Below are positions 3,851 to 61,643 of a stretch of DNA of 64,000 nt, one piece after another. Source of the stretch: Haliotis rufescens (Eukaryota); the NCBI RefSeq assembly GCF_023055435.1, contig NW_025964024.1, positions 2,108,001 through 2,172,000 of the forward strand, given 5' to 3'. Position 1 is the stretch's first letter, and every line of letters begins with the position of its first letter. Made by a program: the position numbers and the translations under genes. Below the pieces are notes generated by a model. The model saw only the letters and a list, made by a program, of their open reading frames with translations. It was not told the origin of the DNA and did no database searches.

Positions 3851-4025
3851 AATTTATGGATAATAACTGCTTTATTTACTGTAAGAGCGACGTTTCGGTA
3901 TAGATCCTTACGCCCTTGACAGTCTTGCTTGACAACGGTATAAGGATCTATACCGAAACGTCCCCTTTACTGTAAGTAAAGAAGTTGTTGGACATGAATT
4001 GTGTCTACTTTGTCAACCGTCACTT
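3851..4025. mobile_element. Palindromic Penelope-like relic with a minimal hammerhead core (3927-3962, +)
   Basis: Imperfect inverted repeat; TTGACAA-C-GGTATA..TATACC-GAAACGTC. Confidence 0.6.
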
Positions 4026-4026
4026 A

Positions 4027-4360
4027 GACCGCCTCCGTGGTCTAGTGGTAGAGCGTCCACCCGGAGAGCGGAAGGTCCGGAGTTCGATCCCCGGCCGCGT
4101 CATACCTAAAGACGTTAAAAGATGGTACTTGTTGTTACCCTGTCTGGCGCTCGGTATTAAGGGGCTAAAATTAAATTTAAATTAATTAAGTGGTATTCAT
4201 GTTAAACTGCAGCATGGTATCTCAGTGAGCTAGCACTATAAATCAGCATCAGTCCGGACTAATACAAGCAGTCACACAAACACACACATGTGCATGCACG
4301 ATGCTATATAAGAACAATAATCTTGGACGCGACGTTAAACCCCATTTCACCTCATCTCAT
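4027..4360 (+). mobile_element. SINE family D (tRNA head plus V-domain-like body)
   Basis: A box TGGTCTAGTGG, B box GTTCGATCC; GTCATACCTAAAGACGTTAAAAGATGGTAC resembles the V-SINE domain; TSD ccgtcactt. Confidence 0.88.
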
Positions 4361-13055: not shown

Positions 13056-13059
13056 TTGA

Positions 13060-13338
13060 GGCGAGTTGAAATGGGGTTTAACGTCGTGTCCAAGATTAGT
13101 GCACTTATATAGCGACGTGCCTGTACGTGTGTGTCTTTGTATGGCTGCTTGTACTAGTCCGGACTGATGCCGATTTATAGTGCTAGCTCACTGAGATACC
13201 ATGCCGCAGTTTAATATAAATACCCCACTCAGACACAGTATACTGACTCCGAGCCGAACAGTCCTTGTTTTAGCCCCTTAATGCCGAGCGCCAGACAGGG
13301 TAACAACAGGTATGACGCGGCCGGGGATCGAACCCCGG
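13060..13338 (-). mobile_element. SINE family D
   Basis: Reverse copy abutting the Tc1 relic. Confidence 0.85.
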
Positions 13339-27825: not shown

Positions 27826-28165
27826 TAAGGAAGAGAATTTATGGATGTCAACTTCTTTATTATGAGGAACACATCGTTTCAGAGTATATCATTCACCTGA
27901 TGAAGGGGTAAGCATGTCAGTGCCGTAGCCAGCCGGGGATGCAGTTGCCTGCCCCCCCCCCCCCCCCCCCTTGGTTTTTTATAGGAAACAGTTTATTTGA
28001 ATCAAGTTGGGGACAAGTGATACTTGTACAAATATTTGCTCCCCCTGTCAAAAAAAAGTTAACTACGGCCTTGCATATACTCCGAAACCTTGAGTCCTTA
28101 TAATAAAGAAGTTGACATCCATAAATTCTCTTCCTTTTGTGTATCACTTCTAAATGCCTTCCAAA
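27826..28165. mobile_element. Palindromic Penelope-like relic with a CTGATGA hammerhead core split by a MITE (27918-28073)
   Basis: Arms aggaagagaatttatggatgtcaacttctttattat and its reverse complement; CTGATGA-A-GGGGTA...TACTCC-GAAAC. Confidence 0.6.
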
Positions 28166-28346
28166 GCCTAAAAAAATATGTAACTGTTATATTCATGCTG
28201 CATATATTCACGCATCTTTGAGCAAGTATGCACCAGCTGCATGCCACGGTGCTCATGTTCTTCCGCGTTACGGAAACTCCATCAGGTCGAACAAACCTGT
28301 CTGTCTCACCATATTATTTTCCATTCCGCACAGCTCTTACTATAAC

Positions 28347-34802: not shown

Positions 34803-36147
34803 TTATTTCTTGTATGAGGATGTGAGGGGAGGGCTGCCATGCTGAGATTTGGTGTCAATGATCGTGTCATTTACTCCATGACATTGATCTGTTAATCCAG
34901 ACGATTTAAGTAAAGATCTAGTCCGGATTAGCGAGGTTCATTAAGATTTGCTTTATTGAACGATTTGTGTGCCTCTCGCCTAGCTCTCTGTCACAAACAG
35001 TGACACCTCGTTAATCCAGACGAAATTGTACGGATTAACAGATTTCCGTATTAACAAATCAATACGGAGAAATATCCAGATACATCAAAATGTACCAAGG
35101 CAATATTGCCAGGCTACCACGGTCTAAGCAAATCCAATCAGCAACGGACACTATAACCATAACTGATCTATTCTAATACTTTCTACAATCAGAAACAATC
35201 ATTGTAAACATTCCATGTCCATATTTACAGAGCATTAAGTGAAAACTAAACATGGCTGCCGCCATTCATAGGTAATACGCCTTCCATACGCCCTCCCAAT
35301 ATACTTATATTAGTCATCTGCTCGCATATCCATGAACAAGGAGTTACACTATACACTGTCAAAAGCTACTTGAAGAAAGAGGTCAAGAGTGAATTGATTT
35401 TAATACCCACATAAGAAGGACAGTATTTACACGACACAACCTTGTTGGAAGGAGAAAAACAGGCAGAACTACATCCGGGTATCTTACATGACAGGTCACT
35501 GTTGTTTGGGACCAGAAATAAGTCGGTCAGCAAATCGGTTGGTGCGCATCTAGCCTTGCTCCAAGGCTGTACTGAAAGAAATGTCCAGGGATGTGTAGTA
35601 ATTACATGCTCCTCATAGGCAAGTCTAGATATTTGGACTTTAGTCACTTATAGGGACAACTTGTTATTATTATTTACATAATCTAGAACATATTATTTAA
35701 ACTATTAATTATTGCTTTAGAGACTTGTGCAAGTCTAGTCTCCGGCATAGGTTCCTGAGACATTACGTAGATCCTAGTGATCACGTGGTCTTCACACGCA
35801 CAGAATTACAGCACCGACGACAAGGGGTCATGGCGTCTGCTAGCCCGCACGTATGGAACTGTCAAACGTCGTTCAGTGCTGATGCCTGTTGTCTTATCAT
35901 ACCTGTTTGTTTTTAATCACGATTCCAACATGAAGTAAACAAAGGCCTGTCTCACTTAAGTACACATACATACGTCAATGGAACTGTGCCAATGAATTGA
36001 TTGATTGATAACGGTGCCAGTGCCTGTACCGAAACATGGCATTGAAAGATTACGAAAGAACTTGGATTCCATACCTTAACCCTGTCTTCGTGGCTACGAC
36101 TTCTCTTAGATACGACTTGTGGAACTATGCAAGTCAACGATGTCATT

Positions 36148-36210
36148 TGAGTGAGTGAGTGGGTGAGTGAGTGAGTGAGTGAGTGAGTGAGTGAGTGAGT
36201 GAGTGAGTGA
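36148..36210 (+). repeat. (TGAG)n microsatellite
   Basis: Seen directly; same unit as the SINE A/B tails. Confidence 0.93.
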
Positions 36211-36458
36211 AACAATAAATATTTTTAGCAATGAAATAATGAACCCAGGGACACGGGTAGTCTGTCTTACAGACCCTGATACAAATATATATCAAATACA
36301 GCCCATGCAAGTCTATAATGTTTGACATGTCTAGATTACTGCAGTATCTGAAAATGAAGAGAGTCACTGGTCTCCCTTTTATTATATTTTCATTAACATA
36401 ACTGAACAACTGGTTTTTCTGTACGATATGTTCATTTCAGAGACTAGATGTTAGTCTA

Positions 36459-36749
36459 GGACACGAGTGGCCCAGTCGTCTAAGGAGCCGCAATTCGCTG
36501 TGAAGAGTTGCGTCCCTTGGTGACGCCATAAACCAATCACTGTGGGTTCGAATCCCCTTTCGCCCTGATCAATGGCTTTAGGTTTGTCAGCACCATACCC
36601 GTGCTCGTGGGTTTTACCAAAGTGGTAAACGTCTGAGACCTGCATCACTTCGGGCTTTCCTCCCACATTAAGCTGACACGCTGTGATATGTACGTTGTTA
36701 CTGGAATACTGTTGAAAGCGGCGTTAAACCCAACTGACTCACTCACTCA
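36459..36749 (+). mobile_element. SINE family A (diverged)
   Basis: Homologous over its full length with more substitutions. Confidence 0.85.
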
Positions 36750-36837
36750 TGATCAATCTAGGCAAACAAATGATAGGTTTACACACTACGGCTAAAAGCA
36801 CTGAGTCAGCCTTGTCACAGCCAAACTGCATATCAAT

Positions 36838-36992
36838 ATTGGGATAGCCTAGTGGATAAAGCGTTCGCTCGTCACGATGATGTCCCATGTTCGTTTCCCC
36901 ACGTGGGTACAATGTGTGAAGCCCATTTCTTTGTCCCCCGCCGTGATATTGCTGGAATATTGCTAAAAGCGGTGTGAAACCATTCTCACACA
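36838..36992 (+). mobile_element. SINE family B (diverged)
   Basis: Homology to family B. Confidence 0.8.
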
Positions 36993-37954
36993 CCGAAATC
37001 AATATTACACTCTTGCGACAAGGTTCTGCATGGAATCTGTTCAGGAAATTCCAGGATACAAAGACTTAGAAGTATGTCCTGTCATCTCCAAAAGTTAAGG
37101 AAAAGAAAAAAATAGTTGTACTTTGGAATCTGTTGTAAACTCAAATATTGCACGACAGAAACTAAAGAACCCAAAATCTTATATCAACCTTTATATTTTT
37201 AGATTCTACCAGTTTCGTTTCATTTTTCGATGTATAATATAGTGTATAGGATATATACTGGATCGTATTAACGAGACGCCCTTAATATACAACTGAGTCC
37301 ACAACGAAAGACCACGATTAAAAAATATGTATATGACGCTGCACTTTTATTTTCAGGCGACACTACAAGGAAAGTCCTGCATTGAGTGAGTTTGTTGTTG
37401 GGACTTCGACTCATCTATTGATGGTGTAGAGGAAGTGTCTATACCGGCGTCAGTGAACATCTGAAAACTTTAGTTTTCTGCACGTTCGTCGCCCGCGTCT
37501 TGCCGTGCGCATGAACTGCGACCCCAGCGCCCAACGGGAACCGGTCTGTGCCGGCAAATCGTGCGTGGGTCACTGTAACTCGTCTTATCCGGTCATGGAC
37601 AAAAAATAAATAAAAAATAACATTCAGGTGGTGTGATTATTACATGATTGACACAAGTTTGCAACATACATATCCATGTAGTTTAAATTTGGGATGCATT
37701 CAACGTCTGCTTTCAGCGACACGTGCATACACAACTAGCTCCCTGGACAAGTGGATTTCCTGTCTGGGGCTGTGATTAATGCTTGCTCTCAAAATACTTT
37801 TCATTTCACGACATGTATAATGGGACGAAATGTGAGGAAATCGAACAAAGTGTCCGTTTGTCCCCGGCGATGTCAGCTATCAAAAACTACTCGCTCGGAG
37901 TTGAAGCCCAATTTTATACTTAATTTTATGCAACGACAACTGGTATGTTGCAAA

Positions 37955-38117
37955 GTAAGGATAAGAATTTATGGATGAACAACTTCTTTATTACAATTAA
38001 GAGCGACGTTTCGGTGTAGGTTCTAACACCGTTATCAAGCAAGTGTTAGAACCTACACCGAAACGTCGCTCTTAATTGTAATAAAGAAGTTGTTCATCCA
38101 TAAATTCGTATCCTTAC
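37955..38117. mobile_element. Near-perfect 75-bp inverted repeat; Penelope-like relic with a hammerhead core on the minus strand (38040-38003)
   Basis: Arms 37955-38029 and 38043-38117, one mismatch, 13-nt spacer. Confidence 0.7.
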
Positions 38118-38256
38118 TTAGTTCTCCCACTTCTAAATGCCAATCAAAGAAATTATGATATGCTGCAGTGTATGAGGTGCCCATTCACCTCCCCTGAATC
38201 CCGAATACCGTCTACTTTTTTCACTTTGTCTCATTTGCTCACCTCTGAATCATGAA

Positions 38257-38610
38257 GACCGCCTCCGTGGTCTTGTGGTAGAGCGTCCGCCCGGAGAGCG
38301 GAAGGTCCAGGGTTCGATCCCGGGCCACGTCATACAAAAAGACGTTAAAAGATTGTACTTGTTGTTACCCTGTCTGGCGCTCGGCATTAAGGGGCTAAAA
38401 CAAGGACTGGTCGGCTCGGAGTCAGTATACTGTGTCTGAGTGGGGTATTCATGTTAAACTGCGGCATGGTATCTCAGTGAGCTAGCACTATAAATCGGCA
38501 TCAGTCCGGACTAGTACAAGCAGCCACACACACACATACACGTGCATGCACGTCGCTATATAAGTGCAATAATCTTGGACGCGAGGTTAAACCCACTTTC
38601 ACCTCACCTC
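38257..38610 (+). mobile_element. SINE family D, full length
   Basis: TSD cacctctgaatcatgaa. Confidence 0.92.
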
Positions 38611-39036
38611 TGAATCATGAAAACTACTTAACACAAATTTAAAAAGCATACGTGTGTAAAAGCATTCACTCTACAAAGGCAGAACGAAAACGTACAGAAC
38701 ACATTCCTAGGTAATAAAATGGTGCAATTTGAAGCTACGTTACTTGAAAAATAACATTAGTTTTTGCGTACCAAATACAATTGTTTTGCCTTTACTCCCT
38801 ATAAATAACCTGTATCACGCCTTCACGAGAATGGGGTTGACAGCCTTGTTGCAGTCTGTATTAACACTGGCTTGTATACTGGAAATATCAGTTGCTTAAA
38901 AGTACATATGTTCCACCTGCAATATATGTGATGAAGATTAAATATTCATAAATGGTAGATATGTGCACTACAATGAGCACCCGTGAAGAAACAACAAACA
39001 AACAACAACCAATGTTGAATGTGTTTCTAAGTACCA

Positions 39037-39272
39037 TAGAATAGGTCTTCAGCAACCCATGCTTACCGTAAAAGGCGACTACGCTTGTCGTAAGAGATGA
39101 CTAACGGGATCGGGTGGTCAGGCTCGCTGACTTGGTTGATGCATGTCATCGTATCCCAATTCCGTGGATCGATGCGCATGTCCATCACTGTATTGTAGAC
39201 TCGGTTATTTACAGATCGCCGAGAAATTTTGTGAGTGCGGCGTTAAAAACAACAAACAAACAAACAAACAAA
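39037..39272 (+). mobile_element. Family C element
   Basis: Forward copy, slightly 5'-truncated. Confidence 0.82.
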
Positions 39273-39334
39273 CGCTACAATGAGACGAACGATTGCCAGT
39301 ATATAGATACAGCTATTTCATTTCGTTTCAACAG

Positions 39335-39832
39335 AGACCGCATCTGTGTTTTGTTGGATACAGCGTTTCCCCGGAGAGTGAGTGAGTGAGTGAGTGAATA
39401 TGGTTTTACGCCGCTTTTAGCAATATTCCAGCAATATCACGGCGGGGGACACCAGAAATGGGCTTCACACATTGTACCCATGTCGGGAATCGAACCCGGG
39501 TCTTCGGCGTGACGAGCGAACGCTTTAACCACAAGGCTACCCGACCGCCCTCCCCGGAGAGCGAAGGTTCAGGATTTGATCCTCTGTCACATCAAACCAA
39601 AATATGTTAAAAGGTGGTACTTGTTGCTACGGCGCTTGGCATAAAACTAGGACTGTTTGGCTCGGAGTCAGTATACTGTCTTAGTAGGGTGTCCATGTTA
39701 AACTGCAGCATGGTGTCTCAGAGGGCTATAAAACCGGCATTGGTCCGGGACAGTACAAGCAGCCATACACAAACACACATACAAACACACACATATCGCC
39801 ATAGAAACGACGTAAACCCCATCTCACCTCAC
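39335..39832 (+). mobile_element. SINE family D (diverged, interrupted by family B)
   Basis: Head at 39335-39378, body resumes at 39551. Confidence 0.8.
39377..39550 (-). mobile_element. SINE family B nested in the head of a family D SINE
   Basis: TSD tccccggagag at 39368 and 39551. Confidence 0.9.
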
Positions 39833-40629
39833 CGTTTCCACAGAAGTTCTAAATTCTCACTGTCCTGCATAGAAATGATTTGAAAATATAAATACAAAAA
39901 ACAGGGCGTTGGTCTGTGTACTTATGAGAAAGCTAAAACAATTTTATAAAATCTTTATAACGAGTCCAAAAACAAACCATCTATTATTCAATTGACGACA
40001 TGTCGTAGATGTGTTGAAATCTAGGTGCGTTACCTAAGGCGATGAGACGTGATAAAGCGCAAACACTGACGACACACCTCATAATCTGTATCAATGATTG
40101 ATTGACCTCAGAATCTGTAACAAAAGCACGTATGTCAATAATACTTCGATTAAAATTCAGAAACACCCAACAGTTGTTGACGCCATAGCCTGCACAACTG
40201 ATGTCATCTATTTTTCTGGTATGTTTTTGCGCAACGTCACTTTGGTTAGTCACGAAGATAAGGGTCTACAGATAGGATCAGTCAGGTTGGGTTTATTAAG
40301 TTTCGTGGGAGATAAAGCGACCTTTCCTCAACTGCCGACCTCCGTGCACGGGTTCAAGAATTGCTTTGGGCCGCGTGTCACTTGAGTTTCATGCGCGCCA
40401 CTATCTCAGCGGCGATCACTTCCCTGTTCGACTGCTTGCTGTAGGGGACCGGCCAGGGCGATCAGCTGATGAACAATCATATTATTGAAAATAGTCACTA
40501 TATGAATACGGAAACGCTCTTCCGTTCGCTAATGTGTCAGGGATAAAAAGTCAGACTAGTGTACACAGTTAGAAGGGTCAGCCCGTAGTACACGCAATGG
40601 TCACTCAGGCCACGCATGCATTGAACCCA

Positions 40630-42594: not shown

Positions 42595-42900
42595 GAGGTG
42601 AGGTGAAATGGGGTTTAACCTCGCGTCCAAGATTATTGCACTTATATAGGGATGTGCATGTACGTGTGTGTGTGGACTGATGCCGATTTATAGTGCTAGC
42701 CCACTGAGATACCATGCCGCAGTTTAACATGAATACCCCACTCAGACACAGTATACTGACTCCGAGCCGACCAGTCCTTGTTTTAGCCCCTTAATGCTGA
42801 GTGCCAGACAGGGTAACAACAAATACCACCTTTTAACGTCTTTTGGTATGACGCGGCCGGGGATCGAACCCCGGACCTTCCGCTCTCCAGGGGGACGCTC
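42595..42900 (-). mobile_element. SINE family D
   Basis: Reverse, near-full copy. Confidence 0.88.
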
Positions 42901-42983
42901 TATATATATATATTCATATGAAAAAGAGTGGGACTTTCTTTAACTTTTCTTTTGAGTGGGATATTCCCACACCTGTCAATAAG

Positions 42984-61281: not shown

Positions 61282-61643
61282 GACAGCCTCCCTGGTCTAG
61301 TGGATAGAGCATTTGCCTCAAGAGCGTGCCGGGTCATACCAAAAGACATTAAAAGATGGTACTTGTTGTTACCCAGCCTGGCGCTTGGTATTAAGGGGCT
61401 ACAACAAGGACTGGTTGGCTCGGAGTCAGTATACTGTGTCTGAGTAGGGTGTCCATGTTAAGCTGCGGCATGGTATTTGAGCGGGCTAGCACTATAAATC
61501 GGCATTAGTCTGGACTTGTACAACTACAAGCAGACAGACAGACAGACAGACAGACACACACACAGACACACACACACACACACACACACATAGCTACATA
61601 AGCACAGTTATCTTGAGTGTTATGTTTAAGCACATTTCACCTC
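61282..61643 (+). mobile_element. SINE family D (diverged; internal (CAGA)n(CA)n)
   Basis: Homology along the full length. Confidence 0.82.

Follow-up and report, generated by a model that had tools for sequence, protein, structure and literature searches.

The locus considered here lies in a 64,000-nucleotide stretch of the Haliotis rufescens genome (hereafter the window), and raises the question of what kind of element leaves a near-perfect palindrome with a hammerhead ribozyme motif inside it, and whether the palindrome is a mobile unit, a functional RNA or part of something larger. The palindrome comprises two arms of 77 nt (37953-38029 and 38043-38119) around a 13-nt loop, with a sole mismatch (37964 A / 38108 G); its fold has a z-score of -22.5, and 0 of 200 shuffled sequences fold equally well. 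The earlier note had given the arms as 75 bp with one mismatch, which is right as to the mismatch and slightly short as to the length. The insertion itself is larger than the palindrome, running from 37953 to 38155, as it includes a 36-nt tail on one arm and is flanked by a target-site duplication (TSD; Table 1); the plus-strand copy including this tail spans -25 to +87 relative to the predicted hammerhead cut. For the imperfect duplication, the chance of at least 10 matches in 12, with a slack of +/-3, is 0.004. We conclude with high confidence that the locus is a single insertion of a Penelope-like element (PLE), made up of two head-to-head pLTR ends of which one is tailed, bounded by an imperfect 12-bp TSD, and holding a hammerhead that is likely a passenger.

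Table 1. Coordinates of the features of the insertion and its flanks within the window
Feature	Position	Strand	Remarks
Left target-site duplication	37941..37952		12 bp; 10/12 identical to right copy
Long-headed, tail-less PLE end	37953..38045	-	-41 (Inr-like site) to ~+52 relative to the predicted hammerhead cut
AATAAA inside the pLTR, candidate poly(A) signal	37987..37992	-	Conserved in 2415 exact 23-mer matches
Minimal type I hammerhead motif, U3-A8 core	38003..38040	-	Predicted cut between 38005 and 38004
Short-headed PLE end	38043..38119	+	Truncated inside stem II at -25; without the UUGAUAA core
3-nt microhomology GTG/CAC common to both heads	38043..38045		Junction overlap of 3
PLE tail, 36 nt, on one arm only	38120..38155	+	Predicted ORF start ATG at 38137-38139
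Right target-site duplication	38156..38167		Partner of 37941-37952

The arms are head-to-head, because the 5' ends of both copies meet in the middle of the palindrome, and not tail-to-tail as first proposed; among the loci fetched, about 60 of which had been preselected as palindromic, 91 pairs are head-to-head and 2 tail-to-tail. A very recent origin, also proposed, is not demonstrable: the arms have scarcely changed, but 4 changes are found in the tail, the two halves of the TSD disagree at 2 of 12 positions, and copies of the family average ~5% divergence. The +41 G of the window mismatch recurs in 4 of 98 typed arms of the same subfamily and may stem equally from its source or from mutation, and the cleanness of the window arms is probably a selection effect, their symmetry having made this copy stand out. 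Outside the top-30 set, palindromic arms diverge by 4.6-5.0% at non-CpG sites, about as much as tails, and the inserted copies of the family appear to decay neutrally; protection of palindromic arms from mutation was considered and rejected, the A1 arms outside the same set standing at 5.0% against 3.7% for the tails. As regards host-gene context, the surroundings of the locus showed no long ORF outside repeats. ARAGORN predicted no tRNA gene in 36000-40000.

Descent from a PLE, which the earlier note had proposed for this remnant, is borne out by the linkage of the arm, in sense, to ORFs for reverse transcriptase (RT) and GIY-YIG endonuclease (EN). A GIY-YIG-type coding remnant lies upstream of the arm in one copy (L041), and a genome search with this stretch yielded 30 endonuclease-bearing loci, at 28 of which (a count that includes the query's own locus, L087 and L090 being those without an arm) the arm follows in sense directly after the ORF end; these are the Penelope-linked genomic copies that the note had suggested looking for. 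At several loci the sequence after the RT and GIY-YIG ORFs is 97-99% identical to the minus-strand end at 37953-38045. At one locus, L076, a frame of 548 aa includes a DKG motif and an RVT_1 match (E 7e-7) that is followed by a GIY-YIG match (E 6e-4 to 7e-4, a score below the Pfam curated cut-off), the order of an endonuclease-bearing PLE, and the arm behind it is 98.9% identical to the window arm; the window copy itself has no ORF. Elsewhere (L137, L139, L153) arm plus tail runs into the N-terminus of the PLE ORF, MP(I/L)KEVI..., with the ATG inside the tail. Because the arm follows ORF ends and, together with the tail, opens the ORF, the same sequence thus standing at the 3' end and at the 5' start as in a pLTR, it is, judged by these arrangements, the pLTR and 5' UTR of the element. 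No full-length intact element was found among the loci, the 548-aa frame being the longest that is open. The L076 translation has no visible paired-cysteine linker between RT and EN, and this plain linker and the domain order make the Penelope/Poseidon clade the likely affiliation; a PDB sequence search returned only weak RT matches, to AbiK and TERT (E 0.03-0.19).

Two side observations concern these longer copies. L076, L077 and L101 are 98-100% identical, lie within ~130 kb of one another on contig C68 and share their flanks, and are therefore a segmental duplication, not independent insertions. Arm plus tail (e.g. in L050) also holds a frame of ~42 codons, open across hammerhead and tail, that differs from the frame of the ORF ATG and is probably incidental.

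The minus strand reads GC-UUGAUAA-C-GGUGU(UAGAACCU)ACACC-GAAA-CGUC-GC. The core UUGAUAA occupies 38038-38032 (U3 at 38038, A9 at 38032) and is followed by an unpaired C; stem II spans 38030-38013 and GAAA 38012-38009, C17 is at 38005, stem III is a loopless ACGU, and stem I is a GC/GC of 2 bp. The U3-A8 minimal hammerhead read earlier from this strand is therefore present, with UUGAUAA, GAAA and GUC all in place, and the AATAAA said to follow it does so; stem II was also correctly seen, although it is of 5 bp (GGUGU/ACACC) and not the 4 bp of GGUG/CACC, and may be extended by AG/CU beyond one bulged base. The motif carries the YUGAnRA and GAAA segments, the NUH site and the 3-8 pair of minimal hammerheads; stem I falls short of the 4-5 bp expected of them, with 2 bp in family A and 3 in family B, and a longer stem I interrupted by an internal loop, which was also considered, finds no support in family C. 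An Rfam scan of 36000-40000 gave no hammerhead match at E<=10; its match to the plant miRNA family MIR8643 (59.7 bits against a gathering score of 135) was dismissed as that of a generic hairpin. Viral contigs gave 0 matches to the hammerhead 34-mer.

Whether the core is conserved across copies, a point raised by the earlier note, could be answered with positions 3 and 8 left free: of 100 copies listed, 95 have U3-A8, 2 C3-A8, 3 U3-G8 and 0 C3-G8. Stem II has undergone a compensatory change between GGUGU/ACACC in families A and B and GGUAU/AUACC in family C (1080 matches), although this is a single event and one that the search pattern itself required, and the three families otherwise differ at N7, the unpaired base and the stem II loop. 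Such variation is what selection for the fold would produce in the parent elements, but as the whole region is conserved the evidence for it is modest. Hammerheads with U3-A8 have already been published for PLEs of Schistosoma mansoni, with ~1,300 hits (PMC4209133), and U3-A8 is described as a natural, active covariation (PMC3088659). The metazoan PLE motifs presented in PMC4209133 resemble ours further in the extra base between A9 and G10.1, the G10.1-C11.1 pair, the loopless palindromic stem III and their occurrence mostly as single dispersed motifs, some of them on opposite strands, and that of Drosophila virilis Penelope has the same 2-bp stem I and a possible stem II bulge; the abalone motif differs in host and family, and in lying in a 5' UTR, ~70 nt before the ATG.

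Exact matching gives the scale of the family. The hammerhead 22-mer occurs 1071 times in the genome and a 23-mer downstream of the cut 2415 times, with 0 matches for reversed controls, and the window element is one insertion from a PLE family of >1,000 copies. Copies taken in order of position are a mixture of solo ends, inverted pairs with many junctions, and copies running on upstream. The exact junction of the window palindrome has 37 matches genome-wide, which might suggest that the palindrome is copied as a unit, that is, as a small non-autonomous ribozyme element (MITE- or retrozyme-like) of the sort that the earlier note had offered as an option; a DNA search of the 1.33-Gb genome points the same way in that, of 850 candidates, the best 40 were scored and all 40 span the 163-nt query. 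These top matches were, however, picked by the query itself, the 37 junction copies compare with 1071 hammerhead matches, and other junctions vary widely. Moreover, the junction-identical copies belong to two subfamilies (21 are A1/A1, 2 A2/A2 and 3 partly typed), and their tail may be found on the short arm, on the long arm (L017, L024) or on both (L010); most likely, therefore, the 3-nt microhomology makes the same junction arise repeatedly. There is also no terminal inverted repeat that covers the tail end, and no tandem organisation. Taken together, we consider copying as a unit improbable. Two specific identities were likewise rejected: a MITE or DNA foldback element, given the unpaired 36-nt tail at one end, the varying junctions and an RT element as partner; and a non-LTR retrozyme, given an inverted pair with one core in place of direct tandem units each with a complete hammerhead. 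The animal non-LTR retrozymes described in bioRxiv 10.64898/2026.07.22.740005 are similarly non-coding and PLE-derived and have a type I hammerhead, but are direct repeats with a hammerhead in every unit.

The PLE insertion is better understood from the inverted pairs across the family, of which 70 of 91, one per locus and with at least 40 shared columns, were analysed and 21 dropped. A tail is present on exactly one arm in 68 of the 70, on the shorter-headed arm in 53 and on the longer-headed arm in 15, and 31 of the 70 palindromic copies lie between exact TSDs of 10-15 bp, most often 12, as against 0 of 687 mismatched controls. The inverted 5'-truncated copy, the 30-40 bp tail at one end, which is optional in such elements, and the TSD by which endonuclease-bearing PLE insertions are recognised are all present. 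Endonuclease-bearing PLEs, as described in PMC3846280 and PMC8557442, leave the same head-to-head inverted, 5'-truncated pLTR copies with junction overlap, an optional tail of 30-40 bp on one end, a TSD of ~10 bp, a TATA and TCACT Inr-like motif in the pLTR, and an ORF start in the pLTR or tail; the window insertion differs from these in that it consists of two minimal copies, of 93 and 113 nt, that enclose no ORF, and the family in its TSD mode of 12 bp.

The two arms of a pair probably share their origin. They are of the same subfamily type in 36 of the 37 pairs that could be typed (33 of the 70 being untypable), so that descent from different parent copies, discordant in 1 of 37, is mostly rejected, and 6 private variants, in 4 of 42 pairs, occur in both arms (shuffle mean 1.5, P 0.003), 3 of the 6 coming from one copy. 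Type concordance and shared private variants point to one source RNA, though gene conversion or rare source lineages could also explain them. As a separate observation, some copies (L234, L235, L246, L250, L267, L269, L084) lie directly behind (GTAA)n or (TCAG)n microsatellites; the tail-less element end is CTTAC/TTA, and microhomology with the target may help priming or joining.

Where the source RNA begins was approached through the 5' ends of the first 100 of the 2415 exact 23-mer matches, all on contig C1, which were mapped with five natural copies as reference. Of these ends 29 fall at -44 to -39, 43 over the next 51 positions downstream, 15 over the 51 positions upstream and 13 beyond; against the 51 downstream positions the pile-up has a Poisson P of 2e-13, although ATCA at -43 can pair with TGAT at -33, which inflates ends in paired copies, and ~22 of the 29 are paired copies, 6 being solo and 1 having a distant partner. 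At the hammerhead cut (+1) there is no excess, with 1 end in 100 (2 in 100 with a single reference) against ~0.8 expected. The ends cluster at TCACTT, which lies ~30-33 nt downstream of a TATA box, and the spacing of TATA and TCACTT/TCAGTC is kept in families A, B and C, between which the spacers cannot be aligned by eye. A sense transcript is thus likely to start at this TATA/Inr-like site, ~40 nt before the hammerhead cut. A TCACT of this sort in PLEs is termed an Inr-like site in PMC3846280, while the promoter of D. virilis Penelope is internal and contains no TATA (PMC2377424). Searches of main texts found no paper that reports a 5'-end pile-up at a PLE transcription start or a bias of the tail to the short head; the coverage of genomic and RNA ends in Fig. 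S2 of PMC11167929, a supplement, could be relevant to this point.

The absence of a 5'-end excess at the cut and the single tail in 68 of 70 pairs suggest that two cDNAs were primed on a single sense RNA that had not been cleaved, and that microhomology joined them. For the window copy, the endonuclease of the element would have cut both target strands ~12 bp apart, and RT would have primed on the uncleaved sense transcript at two known internal start sites, one yielding a tail and the other none; one cDNA would then have continued off the 5' end of the RNA, at -41, while the other halted at -25, and their 3' ends, GTG and CAC, would have annealed before repair into a palindrome. How the two cDNAs might be coordinated can be proposed only tentatively: a dimeric RT could prime both cut strands on the one RNA, using a different tail boundary for each; the cDNA without a tail would lead and run off at the transcription start, the tailed one would trail and stop earlier, and the 3' ends would then anneal. 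The closest parallel is Poseidon of Anolis carolinensis (PAc), for which PMC11167929 describes the same two internal RT start sites bounding the tail, the cutting and extension of both target strands, and uncleaved RNA as the main template, as proposed here; it reports no RNA ends at the hammerhead cut, where the abalone family has no excess of copy ends. PAc differs in its C3-G8 core and in an ORF that starts in stem II, and in the account given there the strands show no difference in RT start site, whereas the abalone pairs have one tail each in 68 of 70.

The main rival concerns the same element and differs only in the route. A single cDNA that had reached the RNA 5' end would fold back, its 3' GTG pairing with CAC 13 nt back, and copy itself, one tail later being trimmed by the endonuclease. 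The 3-nt microhomology fits such a hairpin with a 13-nt loop, the private variants shared between arms are in keeping with it, and self-priming is favoured in PMC3846280, though there on an antisense template. Nevertheless, on this route the first strand would be the long-headed arm, and that arm is tail-less in 53 of 68 pairs, so that plain self-copying needs the extra trimming step to supply a tail; several pair junctions, furthermore, have gaps or inserted bases in place of overlap. Fold-back self-priming accordingly seems to us rather unlikely.

Returning to the window copy as two cDNA ends joined head-to-head, we asked what its hammerhead could do. The earlier note had envisaged a transcript that switches between ribozyme and long hairpin; in fold computations the hairpin reaches -131.4 kcal/mol, as against -85.5 kcal/mol with hammerhead stems I and II forced, and this cost of 46 kcal/mol lends the switch no support. 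Dimer action, also suggested, finds no partner at this locus, the plus strand being without the core that one would need. On these models the hammerhead of the window copy is likely an inactive passenger, sequestered inside the long hairpin, and any activity in the parent element would probably depend on dimer formation or on help from a protein. It might still be held that the locus serves the host as a functional hairpin/ribozyme switch or a small-RNA precursor, since the hairpin is very stable and the core of the window copy intact. Besides the energetic cost, several findings make this highly improbable. Transcription of the minus strand yields the complementary arm first, the promoter TATA is absent from the window copy, and CpG-type changes remove G12 and the CG of ACGU in copies of the family, G12 being altered in 17 of 160 A1 arms as inserted copies decay at the CpG positions of the core. 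Small-RNA mapping, which the earlier note had recommended, was carried out on a solo copy with three raw-read libraries whose species match is uncertain (two other runs of the same label share at most 0.03 of words); it placed no read on the arm region and 28 upstream of it (0, 25 and 3 by library), mainly antisense and at the endonuclease-coding end. In one library, reads of ~30 nt start at L068:1973 (5 molecules) and L068:2155 (11 molecules); antisense to the endonuclease-coding end, they look piRNA-like.

The window holds other repeats. A second head-to-head PLE end, of a sister family, lies at 3851-3990 with the core UUGACAA and stem II GGUAU/AUACC; this family has 1080 exact pattern matches genome-wide and a canonical TCAGTC Inr-like motif ~30 nt after its TATA. 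A third, more distant head-to-head end at 27826-28166 has a canonical CUGAUGA (C3-G8) core at 27897, and its stem II is interrupted by an unrelated insert of ~170 nt. A tRNA-like SINE is found at ~38256-38610, ~100 bp to the right of the 37953-38155 element, and again at 4026-4070, where it follows the 3851 PLE copy within ~40 bp, and at 13058-13312, 42674-42902 and 61328-61544. From ~7400 onward a 30-bp unit is repeated in a long tandem array, and the strands there are strongly skewed.

The locus is thus an unremarkable PLE insertion in decay, one of many, whose hammerhead variant has already been published; in itself it matters little, beyond showing how PLE ends can pass for miRNA precursors or MITEs. 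Wider value attaches only to the end statistics of the family, which bear on the origin of single-tailed head-to-head PLE ends and supply numbers that can be tested: a 5' pile-up at the TATA/Inr-like site but not where the ribozyme would cut, a single tail to each pair, most often on the arm with the shorter head, and a common source for both arms. Should twin priming on one RNA prove true, head-to-head PLE palindromes could be accounted for with no need of the antisense template proposed before, and it would follow that the RNA used for insertion mostly keeps its hammerhead uncleaved.
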